Shown here: positions 7,601-55,117 of the stretch, one piece after another
Numbering within the stretch: the stretch's first letter is position 1
How the letters are laid out: the number at the start of each line of letters is the position of its first letter
Source of the DNA: Convolutriloba macropyga
Taxonomy: Eukaryota
NCBI RefSeq assembly: GCF_964194025.1
Contig: NC_134470.1
Coordinates: 13,020,001-13,084,000 of the forward strand
Direction of reading: 5' to 3'
DNA length: 64,000 nt
Made by a program: the position numbers and the translations under genes
The notes under the pieces: model-generated
What the model was told of the DNA's origin: nothing
Database searches by the model: none
The model's input: only the letters and a program-made list of their open reading frames with translations

Positions 7601-8521
7601 ACTGTATGGTGTGAACGGAGGTTCTTGAGATATTGGCTGTAAAAATGGGGTCGAAGGAAGCTAGTACTTGCGAACCGGTGTCCGGAATGTTAGCTGACGT
7701 AAATTTTATCCGAAAACGTCAAAAATTTGAAAAGTAGAATTAATTGCTGAGATAACTGCTGTAAGCAAACTTGAGTGACGCGCAATCATCTAACTCTCCT
7801 AAGCGTGAAATTAATGCAGTTGGCCAAGCCTCGAATGCCATGCCTCAGCGGCCAATGAAGTTTGATCTATTTCAACCAAACAAATTATTACCAACGAAAC
7901 TGTTATACGCGCAATAACTTTTCTGTGTTATCAAATTTTATTGGTTTTCGTCTCCTTTTCGTTTAATATTCCATTCGGCTAATATTCAGGCACCTTGCGA
8001 GCCATATTTGTTGTTCAAGTTCTGACACGGATAGTCATTTTCTTTAAACGAACTCTATCATGAATGCTCTTTTCAAGAATTACACCTAAACAACTATGTT
8101 GTATTTTCAAAAAGAAGTCGAATTGTTCGCTGAAAACATAAGTTGTGAAATTAGCTCTTATGAAAGCAGTGGAAACCCCAGTTTTTAAAACGCGCCCCCG
8201 CCGATCATTTGAGCGAACTTTGTCGGTTATGTTGATTATTTTGAGCTAGATGTAAAGTTGATGAAAGCTCAAAAGTTTGAAATTTTTTATGATCTCGTTT
8301 TTCTGTTTGTTTATTGTTCACTGATGGCTCTTGTACAAGAGAACATAACAAGAAAATTGAACTCTGACTTGTAGGGGGTCTACAAAGCTGCTATCTAGAC
8401 AAAAAGGTTATTAAGCGCAATGCTATTTGATAATAAGTATTCGCACTGTACTGGTGTGTGGGTGATCATTGGTTTTAACGCCGAGTACTCGGAATTGAGG
8501 CAAATGAAGTGTCTTTTTTAG

Positions 8522-8678
8522 GCAGGAGCGGATGCCTTGAAGGGGATGATAGAAATCGTGAAAAGGCGATTGAATATTCGCGCAGTGGTGAAACCAAATT
8601 TGCAAACGTTGATAGTCAACTTTACATTCCTGTCAAAGTAGATAATGCCCTTACAACTCTGTTGGATGCAGTTTGCAA
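8522..8678 (+). pseudogene. Duplicated 5' part of SNX14 exon 2 with intact acceptor
   Basis: Copy of 11387-11543; the reading frame runs into antisense LINE sequence and stops at 8778. Confidence 0.85.
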
Positions 8679-11386
8679 AATTACGATCGCTAGCATTGCT
8701 GTCAGTCCGATGTCTAGCAGAAACTCTAAGATACGTGTAATGCGGTTTCTTCAGAGAATTTATCTCCAGCTTCAATGATTGAATTTCAGAAATCAGCGAA
8801 TCTTCTTGTTTGTTTCCAGACAGATTTTTTAATACTGAATATTGAGTTGCTCTGTGCATCCGTTTAGATATTGATTTGTCATGGCTGTTAAATTAAATTC
8901 GGCAAAACCATAGCTCTCAAGTTTGGGATTTGCGTCTTGTAGGTCATTTTTAAAAATCAGAAAATTGTGGTCCTTGTGGTACTCCACTGGTAACTTCTAC
9001 TTGATCTGAAATTTCGTGGTTTATTTTTGACAAACTGTTTTCTGGTTTCCAGGTACAATTTCAGGAGGCCTAAAATTTTTTTAACAACTTCCATTTTCAT
9101 CAGCTTGTGTAGTAGCAAATCATGATAAAATTTATCGAACGCTTTCGCGAAATCTAGATAAAGTACGGTTAATTCAAGAACTTGTTTATCAACGTGTTTA
9201 GAAAGACTGAATCAAGGAAAAGCAAAAGTTGAATAACAGCTGATCTATTTTTCCGGAAACTGAATTGATTTTCGTGTAATTTTGTTTCGCAGACTTCGTA
9301 AAGTTCGTCAAAAATTTATTCCTCTAGCACTTGGAGATGCAGCATAGTAAACTAATTGACCGATAGCATTCATCGTCGGCTTTGTTTCCTTCTGTGAAAA
9401 TTGGTGAAAGATGATTAATTTTCCATATTTCAGGATAAATACATTTGTTAACCATTGTTTGAAAAAAGAAGCCTTATTGTTTTTGACAGTGTTTTACTTC
9501 ATTTTTTCACATATATGTTTCCAATGTTATCAGGTCCATTAGATTTCTTGAATTCCAAAATTTTCAAGAATGGTTATGATTTCGTCTCCGTGATGGTAAT
9601 TTTGTTTAGTTTTTGAAAAATATTTGACCTTCTCTGTCTAACTCCGTGGATGTGGACTGGTCTTGATATTTAACTGTTTGCGGAATTGCTGTCTTTTTGG
9701 CCAATTGATTTAGAATACTTTTGGATGCTTCTGAATTTTCGGCTTTTAAAAACATCGGCTTCGATCCCTCCTAGATCTGCATCCTGTTGTTTATTCAGCT
9801 ATTTTTCTAAACGCTTGATTTTTAGTGTTCGATCGAGTTTTAGAATCTTCCATTTGCTTTTTTTGGAAGCTAATTTCTTCATGAGAAAAGAGGTTGATTT
9901 AGATACCCAAGGTGGACAACCATTTGTAAGGCAACATCCAGTTGTGAGTTGGCGACGTTTGAGACGTTTGTAACAAAATTTTCAGGTACTCTATTTTCGC
10001 ACTCGTCAGTAGGAACTCATTTGACTCCAGTTGGCTTTTGAAAAATTGATATTGCCTGCAATTGTGATTTGACAATTTTGGTTTTCGTTTCTGGGGATTT
10101 TGCATAAATCATTAATGAGCCGTTTGAAATTTTCAATATCCCATTTATATGGACTGTTGTCAGGTGGATTATAGATATTACATAAAAGTGTGTGTTTTGG
10201 TTTTGTGTTAATTTTGACGATAACAATTTCATTTTTGCATTGGGTAAGATTATTTCTTCGTGCTTAATATGATCGTTAATAGCAACTAATGCGCCACCGT
10301 GTTTTGTCTTTAAATGTTCAGATTTTTTACAAATGTTCAATTTTTCGCTTGAAAAATTTTTCGTCTGACCATTTGTGTTCTCGTCCTCGAAAACAGTATA
10401 AGAAAGCCAAGCCCGGAGTGCATTAAGTTCTCTTAATCCACACACCGAAACTAATTTGGAGACCTAACTTTATGGTGTGAACGGAGGTTCTTGAGACTTT
10501 GGCTGTAAAAATGGGGTCGAAGGAAGCTAGTACTTGCGAACCGGTGTCCGGAATGTTAGCTGACGTAAATTTTATCCGAAAACGTCAAAAATGCGAAAAG
10601 TAGAATTAATTGCTGAGATAACTGCTGTAAGCAAACTTGAGTGACGCGCAATCATCTAACTCTCCTAAGCGTGAAATTAATGCAGTTGGCCAAGCCTCGA
10701 ATGCCATGCCTCAGCGGCCAATGAAGTTTGATTATTTCAACCGAACAAATTATTACCAACGAAACTGTTATACGCGCAATAACTTTTCTGTGTTATCAGA
10801 TTTTATTGGTTTTCGTCTCCTTTCCGTTTAATATTCCATTCGGCTAATATTCAGGCACCTTGCGAGCCATATTTGTTGTTCAAGTTCTGACACGGATAGT
10901 CATTTTCTTTAAACGAACTCTATCATGAATGCTCTTTTCAAGAATTACACTTAAACAACTATGTTGTATTTTCAAAAAGAAGTCGAATTGTTCGCTGAAA
11001 ACATAAGTTGTGAAATTAGCTCATATAAAAGCAGTTGAAACCCCAGTTTTTAAAACCCGCCCCCGCCGATCATTTGAGCGAACTTTGTCGGTTATGTTGA
11101 TTATTTTGAGCTAGATGTAAAGTTGATGAAAGCTCAAAAGTTTGAATTTTTTTATGATCTCGTTTCTCTGTTTGTTTATTGTTCACTGATGGCTCTTGTA
11201 CAAGAGAACATAACAAGAAAATTGAACTCTGACTGGTAGGGGGTCTACAAAGCTGCTATCTAGACAAAAAGGTTATTAAGCGCAATGCTATTTGATTATA
11301 AGTATTCGCACTGTACTGGTGTGTGGGTGATCGTTGGTTTTAACGCCGAGTACTCGGAATTGAGGCAAATTAAGTGTCTTTTTTAG

Positions 11387-34781: not shown

Positions 34782-35492
34782 ACTCGCTTTCTTAATATTG
34801 GCATATCGCAGCAATATAATGCTTCAATTTTTACTCCACTGGGTTATTTGCTTTGGAAGCTATCTTATCGATCATACACAATTTTTTTGAAAAATACTTG
34901 GGCTTTTTTGGGTTTTTTGGGATTCCCAAAAAATAATTTTTGGGTTTTTTTATCTGTTCCTCATTTGGTAGACAATTATGCCAAAATTGTGGATAGGTGG
35001 GGTCGGAACCTTATGTGCCATCGCACATTACCGAGCCGCCTTGTTTGTTTTTACTGCCGTCTTTATATACTGGAAACAGATCCTAAATTTCTATCTATAT
35101 GCTATTTTAATTTAGTTTTTGATAATTTTTAAAGATTTTTAAAGATTCTAAGAATTTAAAGATTTGAAGAGTTTTAACATATTTTTCAACACACGAAATG
35201 CTGAAATCATTTTAGTTGTATTAATCATTTTGACTGAGACTGAGAATGGACGTCCAACGATGAAATGAAGTTCTGCTGTTTCATAAATTTGTAGTCGCTC
35301 GAGTGGCGTGTAGATATAAAAATTGTTAATAAAATTATTGAGTAGTGGAAATGATGATACTCAAAAGTTGTTCATTATTGAGTATTGGAACTGATATACG
35401 CAATAGGTGCAACTACGTTAAATATTCTTCTTTTTCTTCTCTTTTATTACTTCTTTTTTACTTCTTTTTAGTAATTTAATTTAAGCTGAGTA

Positions 35493-35908
35493 ATGTCAGA
35501 TGATAAAACCTCTCAAGATCATGACGACCACCACCATCATCATCATGGACATGGTCATGGACATGACGATCCCTCGGTGCTTGCCAGCTTCGAACAGATG
35601 CTGTTACAAAATTTTGAAGTGACCGAAAGCGAAACCAAGAATCTCATAGACTCCCTGGGAATTGAACCAAGTTGGAACATTATGGATGTTGGTTCCGGAA
35701 CCGGTTTGCTGGCTCCGTTGTTCCTCAACAAGATACAAGAAGGATCGGGATCTTTGACACTGCTCGAGCCATCAGATATGTTCACAGGACACATGGAGGG
35801 GCTTGTAGAGAAGCATCAAGGAAAAGTTATTCATAAGAAATCATCAGTGGAAGACAAGAACTACCCGTGTGATGCGAACACGAATGGTTACGATTTGATT
35901 TTTGTGAG
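35493..35908 (+). CDS. Class I SAM-dependent methyltransferase with His-rich N-terminus, exon 1
   Basis: DHDDHHHHHHGHGHGH; motif I IMDVGSGTG; LLEPS; YDLIFVR ending at donor AG|GTTTGG. Confidence 0.85.
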
Positions 35909-36179
35909 GTTTGGTTCCTTGTTGTCAACGGTAATTTAGAACTAATTGCCGAGACTTGTTTTTGAAAAGTTCAATTTTCAATAATCGACAAAATGAGCAA
36001 CTCTACTGCTTAAAATGTTCGCGAGTGCAAACACTTTCTTCTAGATATTGGCACTTTTTTTCAATTTCCCTCTATTTGTTGTCATGTCACTCGGTCTCAA
36101 TAATAGGGGATTTTATCAGCCCTCTAACCCAACAACTTGAGATCCAATTAACTTCTTTAGTTTGCAGCTAATAGTTTTT

Positions 36180-37801
36180 ATGCTCGAACACCATTGTTGA
36201 TATTTTTGTCACTCTCTTTCTCATTATAACTAATAAGGTAGTTTATGATCTTTTTATTGTTAAATTTTATTAGTGTTAAAAGGATTGAAAAGCTTGTAGC
36301 TTTACGCGGTGTTCCAACTGCTTGTAACCAACTTTTGTTCCAACTGTTTGTAAATTGAACTTGAGAACAGAGCCTTTGAGCAAGTGCCAATTTTTATATA
36401 GTTTTTTCGCGTGCGGCTATATGACTTCTTCTTCTATCTTGCTTTTTTTGGTACGAAAATTTTCAAATGTTGACAAATATCTTCTAAGGGTAATTTTTGA
36501 TTTCATCATTGGCAGCTAGAGGTTTATGTGATTTCTTTTCATAAAAAATTGGTGAATTTTTAGAGTTGACCCGTTCTCATGGTTCTTTCCGTCACTCTCT
36601 CCCTTACTCTCAAGGTCTGGACTCATTCGTACTCATAAGGCAAAACCTAAGCTATTTAACGGTTTCCATTGATCTCTAACGTTTTCAGCAACTTTGACTT
36701 GACTTGTTTTCAAAAGTTATCAATGATTTTTGCTTTTTGCACGTTTTTTTAATTCTCGATATGTGATCGTTCAACTCAACTAACAGCAGCTCCGATTAGA
36801 TCTGCGTGGAGTTGTAATTGATGCTTCGAATTTATAGCAATGAATTTTAACAACTTCGACAATACTTGTTTTCAAAAGATCCTTATTTTTTTTTCTTTTG
36901 ACGGTTTCTGGAGTTTTTGTTCGGCTATCATGACAATGTCTCTCCGGCTACCATGACAATGAGTTTCAAATAAATCAATCAAATGTTTGGGATTCATCTT
37001 CAAAGGTTTTAGCATTTTAGACAATTTGATTAAAATTTTGAGCTTTTCCAATTCTGCTGTTTCCTGTAATTGTTGATCTTGTTATCTAGTCTTCTTACTA
37101 ATCACAGCTGTTATTGGTTTTCTGATTCATCAAAAATGAAGCTATTTCTGAGCTTAAGTTGTTAGCTGATGTTTTTAGTTTGAGAGCAGTGACTTTGAGA
37201 GCAATGAAATTCATGAGATTGAATCTGTTGATGTTGGGTTGCTACTGATAGATTAAATTCGTATCGTAGTTCCGGTTTCCACTAAAACCAGGGGTTTTAG
37301 CTTGTATTTCAGCTTGATGTTGTTTTTGTAGGCGGTCTTGCAGGGGGTAGTTGTGTACTGATGAAATTTAATGAAGTTTGGTCGTGATGATTGAGAAGTT
37401 GTAGTGTTTGCTAAGACGTTGGGTACCGTACTGTTTGTCTTGGGTAAATTTACTTCTAGCGGTGTCGCGGGCCGGAATGTCTCTCTAGTGAATTGTTTAC
37501 GTGTTTGTTTCTTTGCAATTGTGTCTGTGGTTTTAGTTCTCCTTTTGGATGATGTAACTGTCGTAGATGAATTTGTTGCACTAGTTGCTTGAGTTGGTAC
37601 TGCTGAAATCTTGATAGCTGAAGGAAAAGTTGTAGATGGGGTAACGTGAGTTGTGGGTTGTACTAGTCTGTCCAGTTGTTTAACTCCAGATTGAGGTTTA
37701 GAAGTTGATTGTGTATTGTATTCGGGCCAACCACTCGAAGGTTCCTTCTGAAAGACTAGTATCAATTCGTTAGGGATTGAAGAAAGTTCCTGAAAGATCA
37801 A
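36180..37801 (-). pseudogene. 3' accessory ORF (ORF-B): Ser/Thr-rich N-terminal part followed by a disrupted, possibly helical region; function unknown
   Basis: ORF 37253-37801 and broken frames down to ~36180; partial second copy at 52324-52968. Confidence 0.45.
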
Positions 37802-37980
37802 GTATTCTCTACTCTTATTCTTTTCTAAGAGTATATTTTTCGAAGTTATTTTGCAAGTATTTTCTTTTTGTTATTTTTTTGTATTCTCTTATAAGGTAAA
37901 TCAGTTGTAAATATGAAGTCAGTCTGTATTGTATGATCATCATATAGTTTGATGATATTAGAGTGATAGAGGAATTAATC

Positions 37981-40677
37981 CTATACTGGAGACGTAGGAA
38001 CGTTGTGATCGTTTCTTTTTTCGTCTCTATTATTCTTATCATTTAGGTTTGGATAACCATTTTTATTCTCATTGGTTAGAGTTCGCATTCTATTATTATC
38101 ATAAGGTGGGCTTTGAGTAACTCTAGTTGTATTTTCAGATTTTGGAACTTGCATTGTCCTTTCTTTTTTTTCATCAGTGTTAGTTTTCTCTGAATTTGTT
38201 GCTGCTTGATAGATAGAAGTCAGAATTGGAACTGACATTAAATCAAATGTGGCAGCAAAGAGTGCTTTACTAAAGTGAATAGATGCATCTGTAATTTTGT
38301 TAATTTGCATTGCTCGAATTAAGCATAAGACTATGTCGATGAGTAGCTTAATGAATAAGAAAGCGGCAAAGAATGTTCCGCATCGCTCAATTATATATTG
38401 TATTTTGCCAAAGGTTTCAACAAATTGATTTTTAAAGAAGTCGGGTGGAATGAATGAATCCAGATAAATAGTTCTACAGTTATAATAATTTGTGCCTGAA
38501 ATATTTGAAAATGATTCTCTGCTACCTAATAGTGACTTAGTAAAGTGTTTGAGAACTCCTTTCATATTGGAGTTGAAATTTATTGAATTCCAGAAAGCCA
38601 TCATTTCTTTATATGTGTAGATAGAAGCTTGAATGCTTGCTGTAATTATATTAGCAATTTGCTGAATGACTATGTGTGGTTTAAAGAGTGCAGGTCCTCT
38701 TACTTTTATCTGCGGGGTTAATTCAACCCATGAATTGTCATCATCAACATCTAGTTGAAATAAATTGAATGTTTATCAGAGCACAATTGTTCTTTGGCTT
38801 CAGTGAAGGTTTGTCTAGAAACCGGATCAACTAAATGTATTTCATCTTCATAGAGAATTGGTATTCGGTTATAGCACTTACTAAGAATTTGTAAGGGTGA
38901 ATGAAATTCATGACAATTATATAACCAGGCAACATTGCCGTTTGTTTTGATAAACATAGATCTGTTTCTTGTTAAGGTATATCCAGCTAAACGCGGATTT
39001 TCATGAGAAATCATTAAAGTGTTGAGAATAGTTGAGCGTTCTAATTCACAGTCATTTCTTAATAGCTCTAGAGTAGAGGTTTGAAGTTGCCGAAGATTAA
39101 TAAAGCGCAAATAGTCAATTTTTGTTCCAAGATGGGTTTCGAAATCAATATTCTCATAAATTTAAAAATGCTTTGTATCAACTGTTTTGTTATCACTGGA
39201 ATAATATTTATTTTTAAGCGTAATGGCACTGGTATCAGATTTAAATTTGTGAATGGGTTCTCCAGTGTTCATATCGAAACCGTCACGACGACTAATATAT
39301 AGAGAATCATATGGCGTAGGATACACTATTTGTGGATGACTACATAAAGACTGTGGTTTATTGTAAACTTGGAAAATAAAGCTTTGTAAATCAAAGTCTG
39401 ACTGCGCTGAGCTAAGTTTAGGATCCTTAACTATATAGTATTTGTCATTAGCTTTAACCATTTGAGCGTTAAAAAAGCGAATCATAGTGAAAAGACAATT
39501 TTTGAGTTCATCGCAAGTGTATGCAAATGGATCAGTAGATGTAGAATCGCAGCCTCCGCCTGATAAAGGACAAGGTAGAGGTATATTTTGCCAGTTATTA
39601 ACTATGCCATCTCTGAAGTTTACATTCAGGCTAACATTTTGCGTATATGTTTCATAAGTATAGTGTGTAATCCAACCTCGGGAGTTATTTTCATTGTTTC
39701 CAGTTCCAACTTTGCCTGAGTTAAAGTTTTAGAACAAAGATGTGTCAAAATCGAATTCTACTGAACTAGAAGAAGGGGAAAGCTTTATCTTTTTCCTTTC
39801 CTTTGCAAGTTTGCATTTCTGAGCATCAAGCTTAACTGAAGTAGTAATAGTATTATGTCTGGCATCTTTTCCGGTAGAGTCAAAAGAATCACAAAACCAA
39901 CGTAATTGCTGTTGGGTTGCTTTACACATAGTTGCTTCTAGCTTAATTTTATACTTTCTTTGGTAGAGATTGACTCGTGCTTGATTAGTGCTAATTTTAT
40001 CAGGGCGAGTTTCGCAGGGTGCTACTTTGTTGAGAGAATACATCTGATGTGAAATCATTTTTGAGCAATCAAAGTGGTTAACATGAAGGTTTGGAGCTGT
40101 ATTCTCATAGATACTCATCTTTTCAATTGGTCTGGCGTCAGCAAGAGACGTTAAGAGTAGTAATGCAGGAAATATAATAAAGACCAGATACTTTGCGGAG
40201 CAAGCAGTTATAACGCAGAGAAAAGCAAGAGGTATTATAGCAATAAGTTTAAGAAACTGAACAGAACGAATTTGAGTTATTCATAAAGGATTCTATTTTT
40301 GAAGGAAGCGCTTTCTTATCAGTAAGTTTTTCTTTAAAGAACTTGTCTATATTCAGTGATGGCAGTGAATGTTCGTTGATTTTTGACCGTATCTCTGAAA
40401 CTGATAGCTTTTCAGGAGGCTTTAATAATTTAAGGTACGGGATTTCTTCAGTAAAGCAATTATTTCTATCTATGACACATTCTATGAAGTTTGGGTGAGA
40501 ATCGTTATATTCAATGAGTAATTCTAGTTTTGCAATACGTTGAGCAATTTCAGATTCAATATCAGTTGCAACAGGTGGGAACAGAGTTAAGCAAAGTAAT
40601 ATGAAAAGAAACATTTTGTAACTTACATTTATCACTTCGTCTATTGCTGGTGACTTTTTGATTTCTCCGTCTTCCAT
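37981..40677 (-). pseudogene. Envelope-like glycoprotein, class III fusogen type (chuvirus G / herpesvirus gB-like), frameshifted
   Basis: Hydrophobic signal segments, then HFDC...YSLNKVAPC...VNLYQ...C...WFC; CELERSTILNTL...NP...C...CYNRIPILY...VDPVSR...C; C-terminal TM CGTFFAAFLFIKLLIDIVLCLI and cytoplasmic tail. Confidence 0.75.
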
Positions 40678-40680
40678 TTA

Positions 40681-41540
40681 TTAAACGAAGACAGTATAAG
40701 GTGCGTCTAACAAATTCAAGTTAATATTATCCGTGAAATTAATCTGATATTTTAGCTCGTGAACGTGAGCGGGATTATATGGTACCCAAAATATAACCAA
40801 TTTTGCGTTATTTTCTGATGTTACAAAGAATGCAACTATTTTCTGTCGATTAGAAACAAAACACTTGTCAAGTTTTACAGTTTTATTTCCGAATTTCAAT
40901 ACTTTCTCTAGGAGGAATATTCTAATATAAGATAGCGGGTCATATGCAATAGTAAGAACTTGTGTTTCAAGGGAAAGTGGTAACATAGATTAAGGGTCTA
41001 CAGTAAAGGGAGCTTCAATGATATCAAGGTTTATTTCGTCTCTGTTGTTTAATTGGAAATGAAAGCGTTCAATTTGTTCTGGTTTGTTATGGGTCCAACA
41101 AACAATTATTTCTAAGTTTACAAACTGGCCTTTAACGAAGAAAATAACAATGTTTTTATATGAAATATACGATCGATCAATTGTGGCTGACTTATTGTTA
41201 TTTTTTCCGGTATGTTTTATCCGGTATGTTATAAGGAATGTAAGAAGTTGAGAAAGTTGTTCTTGAAGCTATAATCCAATAATCGTTTAACGGAATATTC
41301 ATTGATCAGTTAGTGTTTCTAAAACCAAACAAGGGACATTTGAATATATTTTCCCCAGAAGACAGCAATAGGATCTTTGTTGGAATTAATAGCAAGGAAC
41401 ACTACAGTTCTTACTTCTTTAGAAATTTGACGAATGGTTAAGGTGTTTAGTGTGAGTAGTGTTGTTTGGAATTCGAATCTACGTTCAACCTGAAGAGTTA
41501 TATACTCTTTTTCTGTAGTTGATATCTGAGAAAAGAACAT
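40681..41540 (-). pseudogene. Accessory ORF-A built from tandem ~95-aa repeated domains; function unknown
   Basis: Units 2 and 3 are clearly alignable (IVIFFV...VCW...P...FQLN..DEINLDIIEAPFTV versus IVAFFV...IFW...P...YQIN..DNINLNLLDAPYTV); unit 1 is weaker. Confidence 0.6.
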
Positions 41541-41704: not shown

Positions 41705-43314
41705 ATTGTTAGAGCTGAATTTGAGAGCGAAAGAAGTAATTGATTTCAGAAAGTAACTGTGAAAAGTGATTTTGAATTTTGGTAAGGCTATTAAATAGTG
41801 GTTGTCAGGGTTAAGTTACCAAAATATGTGTACTCAATTCTGATTGGTTGATGGCTAACCTTGACTAGTGGCATGTAGCGTTGTGATAAACTGGTCAAAC
41901 GACAAGCACATTACGATAACTTCGTAAAATTGAATGCTCAGGATTTGCTGTTTTTATATGTTCTATGCGATTATAATGTGTCTTAAAAAGGAACTTCTGG
42001 TTCGAATTTTAGAAATCGCAGATGTAGGGCTATAGTATAGATGTCAATGGTTGAGTTACGCTAAAAGGTAGCACTTGTACTTCAACAGAAACTTTCCGAG
42101 ACCTCTTAGAACTTATTGAGCTAACATTTGCTGTTTTATGTCCTTTGTAGGTGAACATTATATCTAAAAAAATGTACTTATAAATCGAAATTCAAAAATC
42201 CCCTGTGTCAGGCTAAGGTACTAGGTGTTAAGAACAACTGAATATAATTCTCAGGGTTTTAGAGTTTTTAAACATTTCCGGAGACTTTTTTTCGTGTGAG
42301 AAGTTGAATTATCAAACTTTAGTGTTGAACATCAAGTATAAAGTACGATATTTTCACTTATAAGCTTGATATAGAAAATTTGCTCGCAACGTTTTGTTTG
42401 TTAGGTTTTTGTGCGTTGATGTGCAAATTTTTAGTTTGGTATCTGGACGCGTTCATAAAAGGGGTAACTTAATTTTGAAATTTTTTGTATAATTCCTATG
42501 ATTTTGCTGACTTTATTAATTCAAGTTAGTGTAGGATTTAAATGCTTGTTCAACTGACTGGTGATAGAAGTGGGCTCAGGGAAAATAGTAAATCGATTTC
42601 TACTTGTTCTAGTAGGGGAATTTTGTTTGTTCTTAGTTGAAATAACCTTGTGTTTAGAAGTCGTAATATTCAGGTTAGTTATTTGTTCATAAGTGCTTCA
42701 ATGTTCATTTTAAACATTCCTTGGGTCCTTAAACTAGTAAGGTTAGCTCTTATCTGTTGACTATTTGGGCTGCCTAAATTTGCGTTTCCTGACTAAATGC
42801 GATTTTACGTGGATTAAATAGTTTGCAAGGGACAAGTTCCTGTACTTAAGGTATTTAGCTTAGATAATGGTATTTGCTCATAGGGACTTGTTTCTACTTA
42901 GCTTTTCTTTGGGTAACATGTGTTTTCAGCGTTAGTTTGTAATAAAAGGTATGCGTAAATTTTAAATTTGCATAAGCTTTGAACATGTAGAGAAGTTATG
43001 TGTGTGTGTAACAGCTTGCAATGGTGATTAATCGCGTACTTTGTGTAAGATTTGTGTTGAGTGGGCTATTTGCTTTTTGCCTTTAACTCTTGTTGACTAT
43101 AGTTGATCTCTTCTTGCATAGTAAATTCTAAACTTTAAATTTAAATTTTGTTCTTGTTAACTTAATTTTCCTCGACTTTTAGTTTCAATCTATTTCTTCT
43201 TTAACGTTTATCTTCTAATTTTTCTTTGATTCCATTTCTGTTATATTTTTCATTTTCTAAATTTCCTTTTTCTTTCTACTTCATTCAATCTTATTATTTA
43301 TCATAAATTGGTAC

Positions 43315-44076
43315 ATGGTGAATTATCTGCGGGAGACTGAGCTAGCTAGAGAACCCTTAGAAAACCCTAGGTGGTGGTTAGATACGAATGGGGTTAGTTT
43401 AGAACCTCTGAGCTTGATTCAAAATAGAAAGCGGAGGAGTCAATATTTACATTTCTCATACCAGGATACTGCAGGTCTATCTGCAACTCAATTCTTATAT
43501 TTCTTCTCTGCAAGTTATAAGTTTCCTCAACTCGTATTATCTGACGATGAAATTGATGGTATTATTAGAGCCATAGGAAGCAAACGCCCTTGGGAAAGAC
43601 GGGAAACACAGTGTGTCTCTGCAGAAACCGTCGATAAAATTAAATTCTTTCTAGGGAAAGATGTGAGTAAATTTTCTACCTTTTCAGGGCTTCCAACCGG
43701 GAAATAGAATGAAAGGGTAACTTAGAATGTAGTACGTGGAGGGGGGAACAGAGGGTGCTGGTTTAGGGTCAGATTTTAGTAGGCGTACAAGTTGCAATTG
43801 TTTTAGTTCTTCAAGAAACTTTACATGAGACCAGAGGAGAGAAATGACGAGCATTGGAAGATGCTACTGGATGTTGAGGATGAGCTCTACAATCTCGGGG
43901 AGACCTGGTGGAACCCCAAAAAAGGGCCAGTTTTCCAAGAGTGCTATTTACAGCTTTTTACTTGGAACTATCAGAACTGCCTTATTTTCAAAAACTCAAG
44001 TCTAATGTGCGCAGTGATGAGGAGACTGGTGCTGAAGGTAGCGTATGAAGAGAGAAAATATTTTATCTTCTTTTAG
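43315..44076 (+). CDS. Antisense gene inside the retroelement; predicted exons 43315-43662 and 43807-44076, ~205 aa, function unknown
   Basis: Two same-frame ORFs; phase-0 GTGAGT donor at 43663 and TTTTAG acceptor at 43806 bracket all five intervening stops. Confidence 0.55.
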
Positions 44077-44199: not shown

Positions 44200-47100
44200 T
44201 GAGTTTATGTATCAAGTCAGAAGGAATAGGTTCACCAAAGAATGTAGGTGATTTTCTATTACGCTGAGGTCTGCTTAATACTTCATTTGCGTCGGGTAAA
44301 TTAGATATATTAGTTGATGCTGTAGTTGTAGAATTTTAAGGTGATGATTTGGGGCTATTATGCGTTGCTTGGGGGAATAATTTACGTGTAGCTTTAAATT
44401 TACTAGTATTATCAGGTGGGGTAGAAAAGTTTTCTTGCTGTGGGCTATTAGGTGAATACATGTTTTGTATAGTGTAGGAGGTTGAAATGCGTGGGGGTAG
44501 AAAATTAGAAGAGCTTGTGCCTTGAATATGTGTAGTGTTATTTACTCGTGTTTGTAGCGATTCTAAGCCTGAATCTTTTGTGGGGTAGACTCAACGTTAA
44601 ATGTTGGCTGTAGTGTACTACTAGGATTAACAGTATGTTGTGTTTCTACTAATGGCCACTGTGAATTAGCAATATGTTGTGCGCCTCTATGAGCGTTAGA
44701 TTTGGCTATATTATGCTAATTATATTGAGTATAATAATCATCAGTGTCGTCTGGGACTACATAGTTCTCAATTAGCTCTTGTATTTTTTCTTCTTTCGGG
44801 TAATAAGGTGCTATATGATTTCTATGCACGGTTTTCTTCTCATTTGTTTTATCATGTATTTCAAATGTAGTGTTAGTTAGCATTCGTTCCACTGTGTAAG
44901 GGCCTGAGCGTAGCTCTTGTAGCTTTTTAGACTTTAGTAGTCCTTTAGAGTGATTTTCTAATAGTACTTTTCTACCTTCAGGTATAGGCTTTCCAAGCTA
45001 AATCTATTTCTATACTTGTGTGCTTTATTCGTAGTTTGTCTACATTTAGTGGAGGTATTCGAATATATAATTTTAAATGTATTCTCTCGTTTTAACATTT
45101 CGTTTGATAATCTGTTTTGTAGTAATTTCTCTATCTTTTTGTTATTACAAGTTTCTTCACTATGCGAGTGTGGTGGTAGATTACTACAATACTCTGATGT
45201 GCATTTCTTTTGATTATCTCGTAGTAGTCCTATTTTTAGTGATAAGGGTATTTGTGGTTTTGTTCCGAATAGTATTTCATAAGGGGTGTATCCTGTACTA
45301 TAGTTTACTGCAGTATTGTGTGAAAATGCAAATTTACTAGTGTACTCGGACCAATTAGATCCACTTTTACTAATAAAATGTCTTAGGTAATTAGTCAAAT
45401 GTTTATTTTTTACTTCTACTTTGCCGTTAGTCCACGGTGAATATGCAGTTCGGGGGCCTAGTGTAATTCCTATTTCGTTTGTATAGTGAACAAAATCATT
45501 ACTAATAAAGGCTTTGCCATTATCATGTACTATTTGTTGCGGTATACCGCATGTGGTTATAAATTTCTCTAGTTGATTTACTGTTTCGAGAGCTTCGGCA
45601 TTCTTGCTAGGATATACTTGTGTACATCTAGAAAAAGCATCTAATATTACAAGACAAAATCTATTTCCTTTACTAAGTGGTCGTAGTGGACCTTTATGAT
45701 CAATGTGAAGTGTATGTAGGGGTATAGCTTCTAATTGTCCCCATGGTTCTAAGGGTGCTTCGTTTAAGTCTTTGCGTGCTGACTTATTAGTTTGGCAACT
45801 TAAGCAATCTAACATTAACATTTCAATCCATTTAAACATACCGGGCCAATAGAAATATCGCTTAACTCTATTATAAGTTGTGCTTTCTGCTCTCTGACCA
45901 CTAAGTTCATGCGTATGTGCGACTTCGCATATCTTTATAAATAGTGAAAGTGGTGCACATATACTAACGTCAAAAGAGCCGTCTTCACAAGGTTCAGAGT
46001 AACAGAGTAAATGATATTGACTCTCTAGAAACAACAATTTGAAAATATTTCTATAAGTTTGTAATGCTTTAGTTTGTTTAATTGTGTAGTCTTTTTCTGG
46101 AGCTTTGCCTGTTTTTAACCAATCTCTAACTTTGATTATCACGGAGTCGCTTACTTGTTCTTCAAGAATATCATCAGTGTCAAGATTAGCGTTTTTTGAA
46201 AAATCTGTAACTTTAGCTATTAAATCTAATGTATCTGTGTGGACATCCTTTTCTGAGTTTTGAAAAGCTTCTGGTTCAATAAGTTTCTTAAATTTTGTAC
46301 GTCTAATATAGTCGGCTTTAGCAGATTCTAATTGTTCAATAAATGAGTTTTCAATATTACCTTCTACTAAGCCTAGCCACTCTTGGTCATCATAACCTTC
46401 TCGATCATCACTTATTTCGGCTATTTCTTAAATCTCGGAGTAGTAGTGATTGTCATGTTCACTAGCCAGTTCTGAGGTTAACTTCTTTATTTTTTTTGTG
46501 CCGTAGCGAAAACAATCAGAAAAACTGTATAGCATTACAGTGCTCATCTATGTAGTCTGGTGCATCATCTACACTAAAGTCACCTTCATCGTTTATATTG
46601 ATTAGTTTCTTTCTTTCGCCTTTGACTTGAACAATAATTCGATAACAGTCGTTAGCTGTTGCGTCCTTATCGTCTTGATGCAATACAGAATAGTTCACTT
46701 CTTTTCCGTTAATATGAAACTTTTTATCTTTAGGTAATTCTTTGTATTCTAGTTGATAAAGTTTAGCATCTGCTAAAGAAACGTTTCGGCTAAGAATGTA
46801 AGGGAACGCTAAGTTTTTGCCTTCAGTGTAAATAATTTGCAAGTTTTGAAACTAAGTTATTACAACTTGATACTTAAAGAAACGATGTGACTTTTTTCCG
46901 CGTTGTGACCAAAGAAAAAGAATTGGTCTGTGATCACAATAGAGATAGATTGGAAATGGGGATCCAATAACATAAAATTTGTATGTTTGTAATGCAGAAA
47001 TTATTCCGCATAGTTCTCTATGTTGAGGGGACATCTTTTGTTCAGCTTTATCAAATACTCTTGAGTTTGCTGAAATCATACGTTTTCTATCAGGAAGATC

Positions 47101-49831
47101 TTGTATAAGGACACAACCTGTTCCTAAGTTAGATGAATCAGCATGTATATGAAAGGGATAGTCATTAGAAGGAAATGCGTTAGAAATATCGTGACAGAAT
47201 CTTTGTTTAGGGTCTGTGAATACCTTTTCGTGTTCTGGTAACCACTTGAATATTGTTGTATCTGTTGTTAAACCATATAAAGGTTTTGCATCTATGTGAA
47301 AGTTTAAAATATAGGTGTGATAGAAACTCATCATTCCTAAATTTCTTAAAACTTCTGTTTTCGATTCTGGCGTTTTTAGGTTTCTTATATCATCTATGCG
47401 TGAAGCAATAGGGGATAGTCCATCTTTAGATATAACATGTCCTAGAAATCTCACTTTTTGTAAGAAAAACATTGCTTTATCAGGGCCTGCTTTAAGGTTT
47501 GCCATCCGAAGCAAAGAGTGATACTCTTTTACTATTGTAAACATTTCTCGTTTATCTTTAGCTTGTAATAAAGTATCGTCTATGTATGTTATGGCTTGTT
47601 TACGTTTTATAAGAGGTCCGAATGCATAACGCATAAGTTTGCTGAAGTAACTGGGTAATAGCTTAAGACCATAAAGTCCTACTTGATAAGTGTACTGTCT
47701 GCCTCCTACAATAAAACTTGTAACCTTCTGTGTATCTTCGGTTAGTGGTACTTGATTATAAGCTGATGATAAGTCACTACTTGTAAAAATAGTTCCGGTT
47801 ATTATTGTCATTAGAACATTTAATGGTTCAAGTGGCCAACTAGAATTACTTGTATCAGATATAGAGTTTAGGTATCTAGCATCAGTGACTATTTTTACAT
47901 AATCCTGCTTAGGTAATATGATAAAAGGATTGACAAACCAACTATTCATATTGTTCTAATTGAGCTCTCTGATTATTCCTGCTTGAATTAATTCATCCAT
48001 TAGCTTTTCTAATTTATCTCTGAGTTGAATGGGTATTTCGCTAGGTCGTTGTTTTTTAAAGGTAGCGTCTTTCTTTAGGGGTAATTGAAATTTATGTTTA
48101 GTTCTACCAATATCATACTTATGATGTGAATAAACATCATTATCCTCAATTATTATTTCTATTAACTCAAACAATTCATCGTCATTCAAATCACTTTGTG
48201 AGAAATCGAAATTCTCCAGAAACTTTTCTAGATACTCTATGTCTTGGACTGTATTTCTATTTTGCTTAATTACAAAATCACTAACCGCTTTATTTATGAT
48301 TCGGTTGCTTTGTAGTTTATCTCTAAACTTAGGAAACTGGTCATTGACTCTAGGTCTACATAGTTCTTTGGCCTCGGTAGAGAAGTCTGTGGCTAATTCT
48401 CTTTCATCTTCTTTGCATTTTTCTATTAACTCACTTTCAATAATTTCGAGCACCTCTTCCTTTTCTAGTGTAATGGTTTCTACTTTTTGTAGTTTATCAA
48501 TATCATCTTTGCTTGTATACACATAGATAGTTATGCCTGAAATCTTAAATGTTTGTTCAATTAGAGAAGATATCTCTCTCCAATCCATTCCGGCTCAACC
48601 ACAAGCTATTTTTGGCATCGCTATACAGCGTAAATTTAGTCCTAGTGCGTGATCTCTCATAGCAATTAGCGTAGTTTTGATTATCAATTGTTGGCTTCTC
48701 ATAATGATTAGCCTTAGTGATGAGGTTATATACTAGGTTATTATCTGCTCTGAAAGTTATTATGTCACCTATATCACAGTTCTTACTTTTACAGTAGTCC
48801 TTTAATAATGGTATTCTTTTGGAGATTGTGATAGCAAAGCCTTTTCTCATTTCTGCATCTGAGGATATTGTGTGCGCTATAGGCATATTAGAGTCAAATA
48901 TAGATTGGGTACGAAAATCTACATATCTAATGCAAGAATTAGTTTGAATTTGCTGTCCTTCTTGTAAATTGTTTACTACTGTGTGTAGTATAGAACAATT
49001 GTTATAGTCTTCGCTTTCATTTAGTATTATGCTTGTAAATTCAGCCCATTTTTTGATATTGTACCTTTGTATAGGTTTGTCGGTTATATCACACATAGCA
49101 TAACCTATTATTCCTCCATTTATCTGTATTGGGTGATTCTTTTGATTCTCCATAAATATGGGTAGAAATTCTTCAGATTGTGGACAAAGTGTGTTTACAA
49201 AGACTAGGTCAGCTTTTGCAACATTTATATGAGGCATGAAATATGTTCCTGTTGGAAATAAAGCTTGACTGGGGTGCTTTTGTTTGTGCAATTGTGTACT
49301 TTTCTGTTGTAGAAAGATTAGTTGAGCTATGTTTAAAGCAGTCATTTTAGCTATGTATGGATAATCCTTCTCATTGTTGAGTGAGCCGCAGCAAATTAAG
49401 TTTTTTTCAGTTTTTAACTCTACTGCGGGGATATCGAAGTGAAGTGCCTTTAGAAACAAATGACAAAAATCAATACCTATTATGTTCTGTCTCTGTTCTT
49501 TAGTCACGAATACTTTATGGGGGACTGTATATTTACCTTCTGTTTCAAAACTAGATTGGATAGTTGTGTAGCCAAGCATTCTTATTGAGGAACCAGTATA
49601 TGTTTTTGAATCACAGTTTGTACTTTGTAGATGCAAATTTTGTGCAAGGTTTACTAGAGGATGTTGGGTGATTGATGATAGTGCAAGTTGATCCTGGGTC
49701 AATCATAAATTCTACTTCTAAACCACTATTATTTTTAATGGATCCGGTGGCAAAGTGAGGTATAAGTTGAGGTATATTCTTGACTTAGTACTACTTTCTT
49801 TAGTAGCGTTCGGAGACTTTAATAGTTTAAA
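44200..49831 (-). pseudogene. pol: pol: aspartic protease, dUTPase-like spacer, macrodomain, RT, RNase H, integrase (frameshifted)
   Basis: FMIDPGSTC (degenerate D-T/S-G); DLSSAYNQ and YIDD; HADSS, ELCG, YCDHRP; HTHELSG...CLSC; HIDHKGP, HDNG, NGKVE; RSGPYTV. Confidence 0.92.
48514..48910 (-). other. TARG1/OARD1-like macrodomain within pol
   Basis: IAHTISSDAEMRKGFA...VYNLITKANHYEKPT, then after a frameshift LIAMRDH...IAMPKIACG*AGMDWREISSLIEQTF...ITIYVYT, collinear with the TARG1 motif pattern. Confidence 0.85.
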
Positions 49832-51189
49832 GGGAAGAAGTCTGTTAAAGCATTTACGTAGTCATCGTCACCTTCAACGAAACTTATTTGATTTGGTTGT
49901 TGTTGAATATTGTTAGGTTTTGATTGTTTTTGTTGTAGAGAGTTGTTTCTATTTGGTGCATAGAAGCTAGAGCCTTGTTGTGGCTGGTGCTGTTGTTGTG
50001 GTGATGGTGATTATTGTTCAGGGTTTGGTTCATTATTTCTATATGTATTTTGCTGCGGGAAGGTTTGTTCGTGTGATTGAGTGAATCTGTTACCATAGTT
50101 GTTAAAGGAGGTATTTTGTTGTTGATAGTTAGGCTTGTTGAACCTAGGATTATAGTTTTGAGTAGCCACCTCTTGGTTGATAGCCTTGGTTTCTAGGACC
50201 ATTGAATCTTGTATTGCCTCGGTTATTCTTTCTATAATCATTAGAGAATGTTATATTTTGCTTTCTTGGTTCTGCTAGTTCCTTTCTCAGTTTATTAACA
50301 ATATCGTCAATCTGTTTCTTTGTACATCTAGAGATGGAATGACCATTACTTCTGCAATAATCATAGAATCTAGTACTGTTAGGTCTGCCTTTTATGTTCG
50401 GGTCTCTAGGCCTAGAAGTATCTATAGCATTTACTTCGTTGCTTTTGAAAAGGCTGGTTAAATCTATGATTTTGCTCTCAAGTGTTTTACGTTTATCTAG
50501 TCCTGTAGCTCCATTAGACTCTGTTGTTACAGAAAACGTTAAAAGTCTTTGACGACTAAGTGATCAACAAACTGTGTCCAAGTTTTTGAAGGATCCTCAA
50601 TAAGTTTCTCGTGCGCTTTGCGTTTTAAACCTTGTGGTCTTAGTCCTCTTATAGCAAAATCTATGTATTTCTGACTTCTCTGTCTTTGTTGGATTTCGTT
50701 CTCCTTTCTTATATTGTCATCACCTGCAATGCTTGTTGGTATCTTTTCTGGCCAACCTTTATCAATTCCACTCTTTATTCTATGTAGATAGTTCTTTATC
50801 AATTCTCCTTCCTGCCTGTATGTGTTCTCAACCTCAAGTTTAAATCTAAATTGGTCTTTACCGTCTGTGAATCTCTTTATAAATTCATCTTTTAAATTAT
50901 TCCAAGTTGTAGCATCTGTGACTTCACTTTCAAACCATTCTAGTGCTGTATCAGTTAAAAGTGAACTGAATAAGGATTGTTGCCTTTTATCATAGCTAGT
51001 TTGTGCAGCGTGCGTTGTAGGCCTAGTTCCTAATGAAAAGAGGATTTTATTTTCTACAGAGTTCCAAAAAGAAGTGGCATCCTGATTAGTATCATTGCCT
51101 GAAAAAGATACAAGTGAAAGATTTGGATGTGTTATGGGAGTTTCAGGTGGTGGGATACCGGGTGGGGTACTAGTACCACTAGTAGACAT
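49819..51189 (-). pseudogene. gag: gag (capsid region, degenerate CCHC knuckle, N/Q-rich tail)
   Basis: LTDTALEWF...TWNNLKDEFIKRF...RQEGELIKNY; FYDYCRSNGHSISRC; ends ...DFFPLNY*. Confidence 0.85.
49825..49834 (-). promoter_or_regulatory. Tandem -1 ribosomal frameshift slippery site C CCT TTA AAC at the gag-pol junction
   Basis: Two overlapping X XXY YYZ heptamers in gag phase, two codons before the gag stop. Confidence 0.7.
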
Positions 51190-51271
51190 TACTGAAAAGA
51201 CTGTTAAGATCAGAGGAACACTCTAAATTAAATTTTAATAATAAGCTTACGATTAAGGGAGAAGCCTTCTG

Positions 51272-51502
51272 ACTAGCTAAATTAGACAAGTTAAATTTTA
51301 GGGCCTCTCTAATAGTATAAATGAACAAGTTAAATTTAGGCAGGCTTCTCTTATAGTTTAAATGAACAAGATAAATTGAAATTGCCTCTTTATATTAAGT
51401 GAACAATTTAAATTGAATTAGCCTCTCTATATTAAGTGAACAAGTTAAATTGAATTCGCCTCTCTATATTAAGTGAACAAGTTAAATTGAATTCGCCTCT
51501 CT
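51272..51502 (-). repeat. About six tandem ~37-bp repeats in the retroelement leader
   Basis: Unit AGAGAGGCGAATTCAATTTAACTTGTTCACTTAATAT, degenerating towards gag. Confidence 0.85.
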
Positions 51503-51512
51503 GGGACCACCA
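51495..51512 (-). promoter_or_regulatory. Primer-binding site (tRNA identity uncertain)
   Basis: TGGTGGTCCCAGAGAGGC starting 2 nt after the LTR end. Confidence 0.7.
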
Positions 51513-52323: not shown

Positions 52324-52968
52324 ATCATGGGCAGCTATAGGTTTATGTGATTTCTTTCATAAATAATAAGTGAATTTTTGGAGTTGACCCGTTCTCATGG
52401 TTCTTTCCGTCGCTCTCTCCCTTACTCTCAATGTGTGGGCTCATTCGTACTCTAATAAGGCAAAACCTAAGTTTTTTAACGCTTTCCATTCATCTCTAAC
52501 ATTTTCGGCAACTTTGAGTTGACAGGTTTTCAAAAGTTATCAACGATTTTTTTTTCATTTTGCACATTTGTTTTAATTCTCGATATGTGATCGTTCAATT
52601 CAACTAGTAGCAGCTCCCATTAGATTTGCGTGGAGTTGTAATTGATGCTTTGAATTTATAGCAATGAGTTTTAACAACTTCGACATGACAGTGTTTATCA
52701 TGACAATGTCTCTACGGCTACCATGAAAATGAGTTTCAAATAAATTATTCATATGTTTTGGATTCATCTTCAAAGGTTTTAGCAACTTAGACATTTTTTG
52801 ATCAAAATTTTGAGTTTTTCCAATTCTGCTGCTCCCTATAATCGTGGATCTTGTTATCTAGTCTCCTTACTAATCACAGCTGTTATAGGCTTTCTGATTC
52901 ATCAAAAATTGAGCTATTTCTGAGCTGAAGTTGTTAACTGATGTTTTTAGTTTGAGAGCAGTGACTTT
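52324..52968 (-). repeat. Diverged direct copy of 36505-37196 (ORF-B fragment)
   Basis: Collinear sequence with many substitutions and one ~50-bp indel. Confidence 0.9.
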
Positions 52969-53189
52969 CAAAACAAATTTTTTTTAAGTTTTAACCGTGC
53001 CTGATAATCGGTTTGGGTTACAGTGCCTCGCGCTTAGTGTTGACAGGTTTTATTGTTTCTTTCTATTGAGACTAAGTTGCGTCCAATTAATGTTTCCCGC
53101 TTGTAGCTAATAGTTTTTTCACTTTGAGACCATTAGTTTTTTTTCTTTTGATCTTTTTTTGTCTTTAAACATTTTTTTATGTAATTATC

Positions 53190-54985
53190 CTAATAAGTTT
53201 TCTAATAAATGAAATATATGAGGTATAAAGATCTGATTTTTAACAAAGTGTTTAAATGACTGTGAGAGCCTTTTTTCGAAACCTTTAGCGAAATCGAAAT
53301 TCGAAAAATTTCGTTGTCGTTTTTACTTCTTTTCTACAGAGGTGATGTTTACTGTCGGGTATCCCGTAGTGCTAACTTGTTCCTAATACTTTGTTTTAGT
53401 ATATACTCTGTTTGCTGTCGAAGGCTTTTCTTGTTTGTTTTTGCTTTGGTGTATGCTCTCTTGCCTTTCGAAGTCTGCTTGTCCGATGAACCTAATAATC
53501 AGATTTTGAATTTATAATTTAGTTCTTTGGATTGTAATTGAGGACTTTTCCTTTGTATTTTTTTTTCATGCTATCTCTGTATTTGTTTTTGTTCTTTTAT
53601 CTTGCTATCTCGTATCTTTCTCTCTCTCTCACTCTGGCCTTTTCTGGTCTTTCCCATTATAGCCCCCAGCTTACTGGTCACATAACCTATAGCCCCCCAA
53701 TCATGGTAATTCTACCATAATGGCGGGCTATAATGGGAAAGACCCGCCTTCGGTTGCTTTATTTTTTTGAGGCGTTTTTAAGTCCATATTTTCTCTCTCG
53801 ACAATTGAAACCTTTATACGGAAGTTTTATTCGTTAGCCATTAATTATCAGTTTGTTGAGATTTATCAGAGTTTTTGGCAAGTGTGAATGCTAAGATTTG
53901 CATCAAATTCTTTAGTTACCTCAAAATTAAAAATTTGTGCACAAGAAAATTTTGTGGTAAAATTGGCAACTGCATACTTCAAGCCTTGCTCGTAAAGTAG
54001 AATAACTGATGTCTAAACTGTTGATAATAGGGCAACATTTTCTAAATTTGGTCCTCTTTATTGTTGCTTCGTTTGATCCTTTTGCAGCGCGATCATGTAT
54101 TTGTACTAAACGCTTTTTTTTCTATTAATTTTCATAAGTTTTCTAATAAATGGTATGTTTGAGGTATAGAGATCTGATTTTTAATGAAGTGTTTGAATAT
54201 GAGAGCATTTTTTTCAAAACTGTTAGTAAAATCGAAATTCGAAAAAGTTCTGGTCTTTTTTACTTATTTTCTACAGAGGTGACGTTTGTTGTCTTGTATC
54301 CCATAGTGCAAACTTTTTCTTATTATTTTGTCTCAGTATATACTCTGTTTACTATCGAAAGCTGTTCTTGTTTTTGTTTGCTCTGGTGTATGCTCTCTTG
54401 CCTTTCGAAGTCTGCTTGTCCGATGAACCTTATACTCAGTTTTTGAATCTTCAATTTAGTTCTTTTTTTGCTGTGTTCTTTTTTCATGCTATCTTTGTGG
54501 CCATTTCTATTCTTTTTTCTTGCTATCTCTTTCTCTCCCGCTCTTTCCCTGGCCGTTTCGGGTCTTTCGCAATATAGCCCCCCCCAGCTTACTGGTCAGA
54601 TAACCAATAACCCTCACAGTCATGGTAATAATGCCTTAATGGGGGGGGGCTATTTTTTCATGGGGGGCTAAAATGGGAAAGTCTCGCTTTTCTTTTTTGC
54701 TTCATTTTTTCTGAGGCGTTTTTAATTCAGTCCATCTGTTCTCTCTCAACATTTGAAAACTTATTACGAAAGTTTCATTCGTTGCCAATTAATTATCAGT
54801 TTGTTGAGATTTATCAGAGTTTTTTGGCAAGTGTGAACGCTAAGATTTGCATCAAGTTCATCGGTTACCTCAAAATTAAAAATTTGCGCACAAGAAAATT
54901 TTGTGGTAATATTGGCAATTGCACACTTCAAGCCTTTTTCGTTAATTTGAATAACTGGTGTCTAAGTTGTTGATAATAGGGCAAA
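53190..54985. repeat. Old tandem duplication (two ~0.85-0.95-kb units), each containing a small MITE
   Basis: TAAGTTTTCTAATAAATG...GTTGATAATAGGGCAA occurs at ~53193-54035 and ~54135-54984. Confidence 0.8.
53646..53745. mobile_element. ~100-bp MITE-like element (further copies at 54560-54685 and 1-60)
   Basis: TIR GGTCTTTCCCATTATAGCCC / GGGCTATAATGGGAAAGACC. Confidence 0.7.
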
Positions 54986-55044
54986 CGTTTGTAAAATTGG
55001 GCCTTTTATCGGTACATAAACTTGCTTGTCTTGATCTAAAAAGA

Positions 55045-55117
55045 TGATGCCACCCAGGCTCGAACTGGGGACCTTCTGCGTGTTAGGCAGATGTGATAAC
55101 CACTACACCATGGCACC
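55045..55117 (-). tRNA. tRNA-Val (anticodon AAC)
   Basis: 73-nt cloverleaf: acceptor GGTGCCA/TGGCATC, anticodon arm TCTGC-CTAACAC-GCAGA, T-arm GTTCGA, followed by a T5 Pol III terminator. Confidence 0.95.

Follow-up and report, generated by a model that had tools for sequence, protein, structure and literature searches.

A TARG1-type macrodomain within the Pol polyprotein of a retrotransposon family of Ty3/gypsy gene order

Macrodomains and mobile replicons

Macrodomains serve RNA viruses and phages as well-established counter-defences. Their capture by mobile replicons is already known, and a TARG1-type domain inside a retrotransposon Pol is what the locus described here adds. The macrodomains of coronavirus Mac1 and alphavirus nsP3 provide the model for a counter-defence reading, being likewise carried within a replicase polyprotein, but they are of the MacroD type, take lower ranks in our fold comparison and are 10-15% identical to the domain of the element. 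TARG1-like homologues in viruses often lack key residues, according to PMC4245714. Among reverse-transcribing elements, the review PMC4977317 reports macro-domain genes in fish epsilon-like endogenous retroviruses (Basta et al. 2009). These also are reverse-transcribing elements with a captured macro domain, although in that account, which gives no macrodomain class, theirs consists of additional open reading frames, whereas in the present element it is in frame within a Pol of Ty3/gypsy order.

Human TARG1 (also OARD1 or C6orf130; PDB 4J5S and 4J5R) resembles the domain of the element in sequence, in predicted fold and in the equal spacing of its Lys84 and Asp125. It is however a stand-alone cellular enzyme, whereas the element version is an internal Pol domain, about 30% identical to it and of putative activity. 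PMC9411070 and bioRxiv 10.64898/2026.03.31.715305 present Lys84 and Asp125 as the catalytic pair of TARG1, DarG having the Lys alone, and together with PMC4245714 they describe an enzyme that clears ADP-ribose off acidic residues, thymidine in DNA and RNA bases. The DarG antitoxin (NF048014; PDB 5M3E) and SCO6735 belong to the same macrodomain class and form the second-ranked fold family. DarG shares the catalytic Lys, but the Asp specific to TARG1 is present in the family of the window element and absent from DarG, and this family possesses neither a C-terminal DarG domain nor a DarT partner.

On the side of the retrotransposons, the pol of envelope-carrying Ty3/gypsy elements with a gB-type ENV also runs from protease through RT and RNase H to integrase, and a class III fusion-like gene follows it on that strand (PMC13524379). 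They differ in that the main text describing them mentions a macro domain nowhere; in the window element, for its part, the linkage of the envelope-like gene to pol is only likely. Troyka LTR retrotransposons are characterized by CG..CG ends, an LTR of 100-400 bp and the lack of an envelope and of a GPY/F-type integrase end (PMC12440569). We rejected a Troyka identity, since the window element has Integrase_p58_C matches, a nearby envelope-like gene and no CG ends. Term checks for macro domains were blank in PMC12440569, PMC13524379, PMC9040795 and PMC2774666. The openly accessible literature on macrodomains and envelopes in retroelements yielded, in the searches made, no TARG1-type domain in a retrotransposon Pol. 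The NCBI label Macro_Poa1p-like does occur on retrotransposon-like proteins, so that prior art is likely in the databases.

The macrodomain of the window element and its surroundings

In the window, that is the whole 64-kb stretch of DNA analysed, positions 48505-48931 of the minus strand encode a TARG1-type macrodomain inside Pol. The initial annotation had placed a TARG1-like macrodomain between protease and RT, and every motif it named was found there, flanked by the DPGS of the protease and the YIDD of the RT. AHTISSD (48877-48857), YNLITK (48730-48713) and KPT (48697-48689) lie in a first frame and are followed, past a frame change near 48682, by MPKIACG*A (48618-48592) and ITIYVY (48534-48517). 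The equivalent of Lys84 is present in LITK; the site of Asp125 has no Asp, and a stop (48597-48595) stands just before it. The reading of the motifs and the alignment with TARG1 both agree with the earlier description of a retained Lys and of a GLD replaced by G*A in this copy.

Translated with an X at the frameshift and another at the stop, the window macrodomain (P0001) matched human TARG1 in a search of PDB sequences with an E value of 1.6e-18 over 123 residues (17-139). Among the 13 PDB sequences matched, five are TARG1 and occupy the top ranks, DarG coming next at 1.5e-4. The profile search recommended earlier for the macrodomain also returned matches, to Pfam Macro (PF01661) at an E value of 6.5e-4 and 20.1 bits, for a gathering score of 22, and to NCBIfam DarG at 6.8e-9. 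Identity as a DarG antitoxin was discarded, the latter match reaching 35.4 bits against a cutoff of 250 and covering model positions 29-147 of 338 only. With an independent profile of 109 macrodomains, all from outside the retrotransposon family, the six frames of the window gave exactly two matches, which are the two halves of this domain (E 4e-20 and 4e-17). As these two matches stand alone in the window, the macrodomain in pol is not a product of chance.

A natural intact relative (P0002) was used for structure modelling. The model reaches a pLDDT of 95-98 over the macrodomain (residues 141-280) and stays below 50 over most of the preceding part. Its best fold match in the PDB is human TARG1 (E 2.4e-13, rmsd 1.8 A, TM 0.90 of the target), chains of this enzyme taking ranks 1-8 (rmsd 1.7-2.3 A) and DarG ranks 9-11. 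The natural intact copy is thus predicted to fold like TARG1. From the Lys of LITK to the Asp of GLD, 41 residues are counted both in TARG1 and in another relative (P0003), matching Lys84 and Asp125.

Pfam matches and motifs give the order gag, protease, RT, RNase H and integrase, which is that of Ty3/gypsy elements (Metaviridae), all on the minus strand. Judging by the kinds of element present, the host would be an animal. Gag is read in two frames at 50150-51222 (Pfam Retrotrans_gag 9.6e-6; tblastn with P0191). The aspartic protease region, split by frame changes, extends approximately over 49380-49800, with DPGS at 49700 and Asp_protease matches in the relatives P0011, P0180 and P0186. Between protease and macrodomain, at approximately 49050-49350, lies a conserved domain of about 100 residues common to macro-less relatives too. 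A dUTPase-like identity was considered for this domain and is not supported: Pfam, PDB and Atlas provided no name, and its pLDDT is below 50. On the other side of the macrodomain follow a linker, the RT and the RNase H (46852-48500; YIDD at 47586; Pfam RVT_1 8e-18 and RT_RNaseH 8e-19), then a bridge and the zinc finger, core and C-terminal domain of the integrase, in pieces (44647-46544; Pfam Integrase_H2C2, rve and Integrase_p58_C; tblastn with P0170). The bridge from RNase H to integrase, of about 300 residues (P0170 residues 940-1236; about 45950-46850 in the window), has no Pfam match, and its first 60 residues are 57-98% conserved.

The single frameshift and single stop originally reported hold for the macrodomain. 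They do not hold for the remaining pol, for gag or for the envelope-like gene, which have more breaks and all lie in pieces, and because of these breaks the window element is dead.

About 4 kb beyond pol, the same strand carries small ORFs and the envelope-like gene. The latter, which would encode a class III fusion glycoprotein, is in four pieces (37981-40280), three of which match Pfam Monjiviricetes_fusion (E 6e-16 to 1.6e-7). The envelope-like gene and the macro-bearing pol likely belong to one element; they are on the same strand, and both lie within a pair of direct repeats of about 700 bp that brackets gag to env. The left (36505-37204) and right (52324-52976) copies are identical at 83% by blastn and in 87% of aligned columns. 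This bracketing repeat lacks LTR hallmarks: TG..CA ends were not seen, nor a PBS or a PPT next to it. It could be either a terminal repeat of uncommon type or an interspersed repeat with no relation to the element. A primer-binding-site-like TGG run, which may resemble a tRNA 3' end, was recognized from its sequence on the minus strand at 51493-51512, under a leader of about 800 bp; no second copy of the leader above it was found within the 64-kb window.

Several other features accompany the element. In the gag leader, 37-bp units repeated in tandem (51201-51502) end at the primer-binding-site-like run. Between pol and the envelope-like gene, three tandem paralogous ORFs of 73-102 aa (40681-41540, minus strand) were related with E values of 2e-14 for two of them and about 2e-3 for the third; no convincing Pfam match was found for them, and a TATA/CCAAT-like stretch, seen by eye, is located just upstream, at about 41780-41850. 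Directly before env comes an ORF of 142 aa that has a stretch resembling a signal peptide (40249-40677, minus strand), a Thr/Ser-rich ORF of 205 aa (37253-37870, minus strand) directly follows it, and antisense ORFs of 148 and 89 aa (43261-43707 and 43807-44076, plus strand) are located downstream of pol, all without a Pfam match. The window further contains a tRNA-Val(AAC) at 55045-55117 (minus strand), a His-rich ORF at 35490-35939 (plus strand) that by eye looks like a methyltransferase, a near-identical tandem duplication of 2.87 kb (5813-11032) and a 940-bp duplication at 79% (53166-55009).

Distribution of the domain and fate of its active site

The macrodomain is a trait of the retrotransposon family and not of a single copy. 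Its presence across many copies and subfamilies rules out the concern, raised at the outset, that it might be found in one copy alone. When longer proteins were searched, 11 of 135 candidates matched, with identities of 48-96%. The P0009 macrodomain recovered only itself among 47 candidates in a word-based search, and the Atlas searches produced no usable or named match. Two long proteins illustrate the in-frame arrangement: in P0180 (1827 aa) a single open frame covers the protease, the macrodomain, the RT, the RNase H and the integrase, and P0170 is a natural polyprotein of 1852 aa running from macrodomain through RT and RNase H to integrase. Their clusters comprise 617 and 444 members respectively, fragments included.

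Contigs falling on the pol stretch numbered 1290-1511 in each of three runs of one organism, where 30/30 bins had depth, the macrodomain included; a run from a second organism contributed 53. At the frameshift site, most of the contig depth differs from the window copy in three of the four runs. The contigs and the window copy differ at 301 places, and among the 40 listed it is mostly the window copy that stands against nearly all other depth.

Routine annotation misses the domain, which mostly falls below the Pfam cutoff. Pfam Macro gave 21.1 bits for P0170, 21.7 for P0169 and 22.5 for P0186, and several true members had no match. Among the RT-search matches listed, the precomputed Pfam lists of macro-bearing polyproteins include the macrodomain in none.

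Of 135 matches to the RT, 120 were listed, 80 of them at 40-82% identity and the others at about 30%. The macro profile detected the domain in nine of these 120, always between the post-protease domain and the RT, many of the macro-negative rows starting downstream of the site or being near-duplicates of one distant family. In an RT tree of 46 rows, with one or few per near-identical group, the lineage forms its own branch at 100/100 against 12 outgroup rows, and named matches are 26-32% identical. The presence of the macrodomain requires a single change of state on this tree: the 11 rows with the macrodomain group in one clade with a row that could not be scored (support 98/94), and the sister clade consists of five rows without the macrodomain and one unscorable (97/92). 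The distance from post-protease domain to RT amounts to about 300-330 residues with the macrodomain versus 133-153 in the macro-less sister clade, whose linker is about 160-180 residues shorter, and the flanking motifs can be aligned in both clades. As all scored deeper rows of the lineage are without the macrodomain, a gain is simpler to suppose than a loss, and the comparison suggests one gain, into a linker common to both clades. All five scorable macro-less members of the sister clade have long open frames; the macrodomain is therefore not needed for replication. In a related macro-less group (P0204-P0243), most proteins consist of one gag-pol frame, up to 2740 aa long, in which about 1200 residues come before the protease.

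The initial annotation had proposed to check the conservation of the catalytic Lys and Asp across copies, and most relatives retain both. Among lineage proteins covering the sites, Lys is found in 37/39, Asp in 30/36 and both in 27/34, counts that lean high, most of the 41 hand-picked proteins having been found by macrodomain similarity. The canonical motif is present in five of the nine lineage proteins found by RT alone. Fifteen members were also read from each of six clusters. In the P0180 cluster, the members covering the domain have Lys in 12/13, Asp in 13/13 and the canonical loop in 12/13, and in the P0009 cluster Lys and Asp are both present in 5/5. The P0179 cluster has the Asp in five of the six members covering the site, so that its loss was rejected as a trait of this subfamily and attributed to the decay of a single copy. 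In the P0183 cluster Lys and Asp are present and the loop is acidic in 6/6. The P0187 cluster retains the Lys, with Glu replacing Asp and the glycine (GCG) loop gone in 13/13, several of these members being full length, and none of the 15 members of the P0191 cluster has a macrodomain. The macrodomain is optional in the lineage, and features of its active site have been lost in one to two subfamilies, neither of which the initial annotation had foreseen.

Macrodomain identity between subfamilies is 36-56%. For P0170 and P0181, it is 41% in the macrodomain, 20 and 37% in the linkers and 68% in the RT; for P0180 and P0187, these values are 36%, 56 and 62%, and 83%. In pairwise comparison the macrodomain has diverged about as much as the linkers and much more than the RT, and it falls below the linkers in identity in pairs with remodelled subfamilies. 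Such divergence, together with the existence of a sister clade without the domain and the fixation of motif loss in one subfamily, would suit a passenger that the element tolerates, a domain captured from the host and acting as a folded spacer between protease products and kept for stability rather than catalysis. We nevertheless find this explanation quite improbable, given that Lys and Asp are retained in the proportions above despite an overall identity of about 40%, that the canonical loop persists in nearly all members read from the P0180 cluster and that domains of this type are found at three sites of LTR pol. The retention of the active site and the remodelled subfamilies, taken together, rather indicate motifs selectively kept in most subfamilies within a domain that is a remodelable accessory. 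Sister families with an intact, a remodelled or no domain, at 58-88% RT identity, offer a natural comparison.

Possible roles and repeated capture

In LTR elements, a domain within Pol is made whenever Pol is made and enters the particle with it. Our preferred reading, to which we give a probability of roughly 0.55, is that a TARG1-type macrodomain entered the protease-RT linker in an ancestor of the retrotransposon subclade and that in intact members the domain is a packaged accessory ADP-ribosyl hydrolase protecting components of the element. Its position in Pol suggests that it would be made and packaged along with Pol, and the Lys84/Asp125 mechanism of TARG1 that an intact domain would act as such an accessory enzyme. 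It would then free the proteins, RNA or cDNA of the element from ADP-ribose added by the host. That this might be of benefit against host ADP-ribosylation is suggested by the analogous macrodomains of RNA viruses and by the repeated capture. The sister clade without the domain, the linker-like divergence and one multi-copy subfamily without Asp and loop all count against an essential role.

The lineage bears on the question of a direct restriction of retrotransposons by catalytic ADP-ribosylation. The PARP-family factor ZAP, which restricts retrotransposons, has a dead catalytic domain according to PMC4982230, and the eraser would for this reason not counter ZAP directly. The substrate preference of the isolated domain, for protein, DNA or RNA, would indicate the host modification that matters. 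A role outside of any dedicated host defence has also been considered, in which the domain would hydrolyse O-acetyl-ADP-ribose or a related compound, or clean the tRNA primer or RNA ends of ADP-ribose. TARG1 is indeed also named an O-acetyl-ADP-ribose deacetylase in the PDB, and TRPT1 and PARPs are described as ADP-ribosylating RNA ends and bases, but an eraser encoded by the host itself is probably present (PMC4245714), and a copy carried by the element would add little to it unless inside the particle. We consider such a role very improbable.

TARG1-type domains were also encountered in other LTR elements. A representative search listed 150 of 2513 matches, and among 32 long proteins scanned from these, other lineages of LTR elements account for five pol proteins with a macrodomain (P0075, P0112, P0067, P0078 and P0140). 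The domain lies between RNase H and integrase in P0075 and in P0177, after RNase H in P0067, before the integrase in P0112 and, in P0078 and P0140, beyond the C-terminal domain of the integrase. In the RT tree, P0075 and P0177 fall in the outgroup. A branch at 99/93 separates the macrodomains of the RNase H-integrase type from those of the window family, the long rows P0067 and P0090 grouping with the latter in that macrodomain tree, and a forced single origin of both is marginally rejected (p-AU 0.048). A quick tree of 136 rows gives the family a support of 66. The different positions in pol and the different RT lineages make independent capture events likely, and the TARG1-type domain has probably been captured repeatedly by LTR elements.

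A broader proposal, which we put forward only tentatively and regard as rather doubtful, would be that LTR retrotransposons captured TARG1-type erasers several times, at no fewer than three Pol positions, because animal hosts ADP-ribosylate the RNA, cDNA or proteins of retroelements. An arms race would then be recorded in the active site of this lineage, as it was gained, remodelled and lost. The positions of the domain in these other elements, where it abuts the integrase on either side, call to mind a role in integration instead: by binding or removing the ADP-ribose laid by PARP1/2 at DNA breaks, the domain could steer the integration complex to such chromatin or clear the integration intermediate for repair. 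Chromodomains of chromoviruses occupy that same integrase-adjacent site (PMC12440569), TARG1 localises to DNA damage (PMC4695847), and one subfamily has a full-length domain without the Asp. In the window family, however, the domain is upstream of the RT, about 850 residues from the integrase in P0170, and the glycine loop of the Asp-less subfamily is now acidic, which should harm binding too. A role in integration seems unlikely to us, and protection of element components by a packaged hydrolase is the reading that we retain.

Beyond LTR elements, TARG1-type macrodomains were observed in three RNA-virus-like proteins (P0131, P0141 and P0090), at two positions in picorna-like polyproteins and, in another case, beside a superfamily 1 viral helicase. 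One protein (P0114) has a macrodomain with a GDSL esterase-like neighbour. Finally, P0040, P0053, P0116 and P0149 combine a TARG1-type macrodomain with a BRCT domain of the DNA ligase III type, P0116 carrying it inside a DNA ligase.
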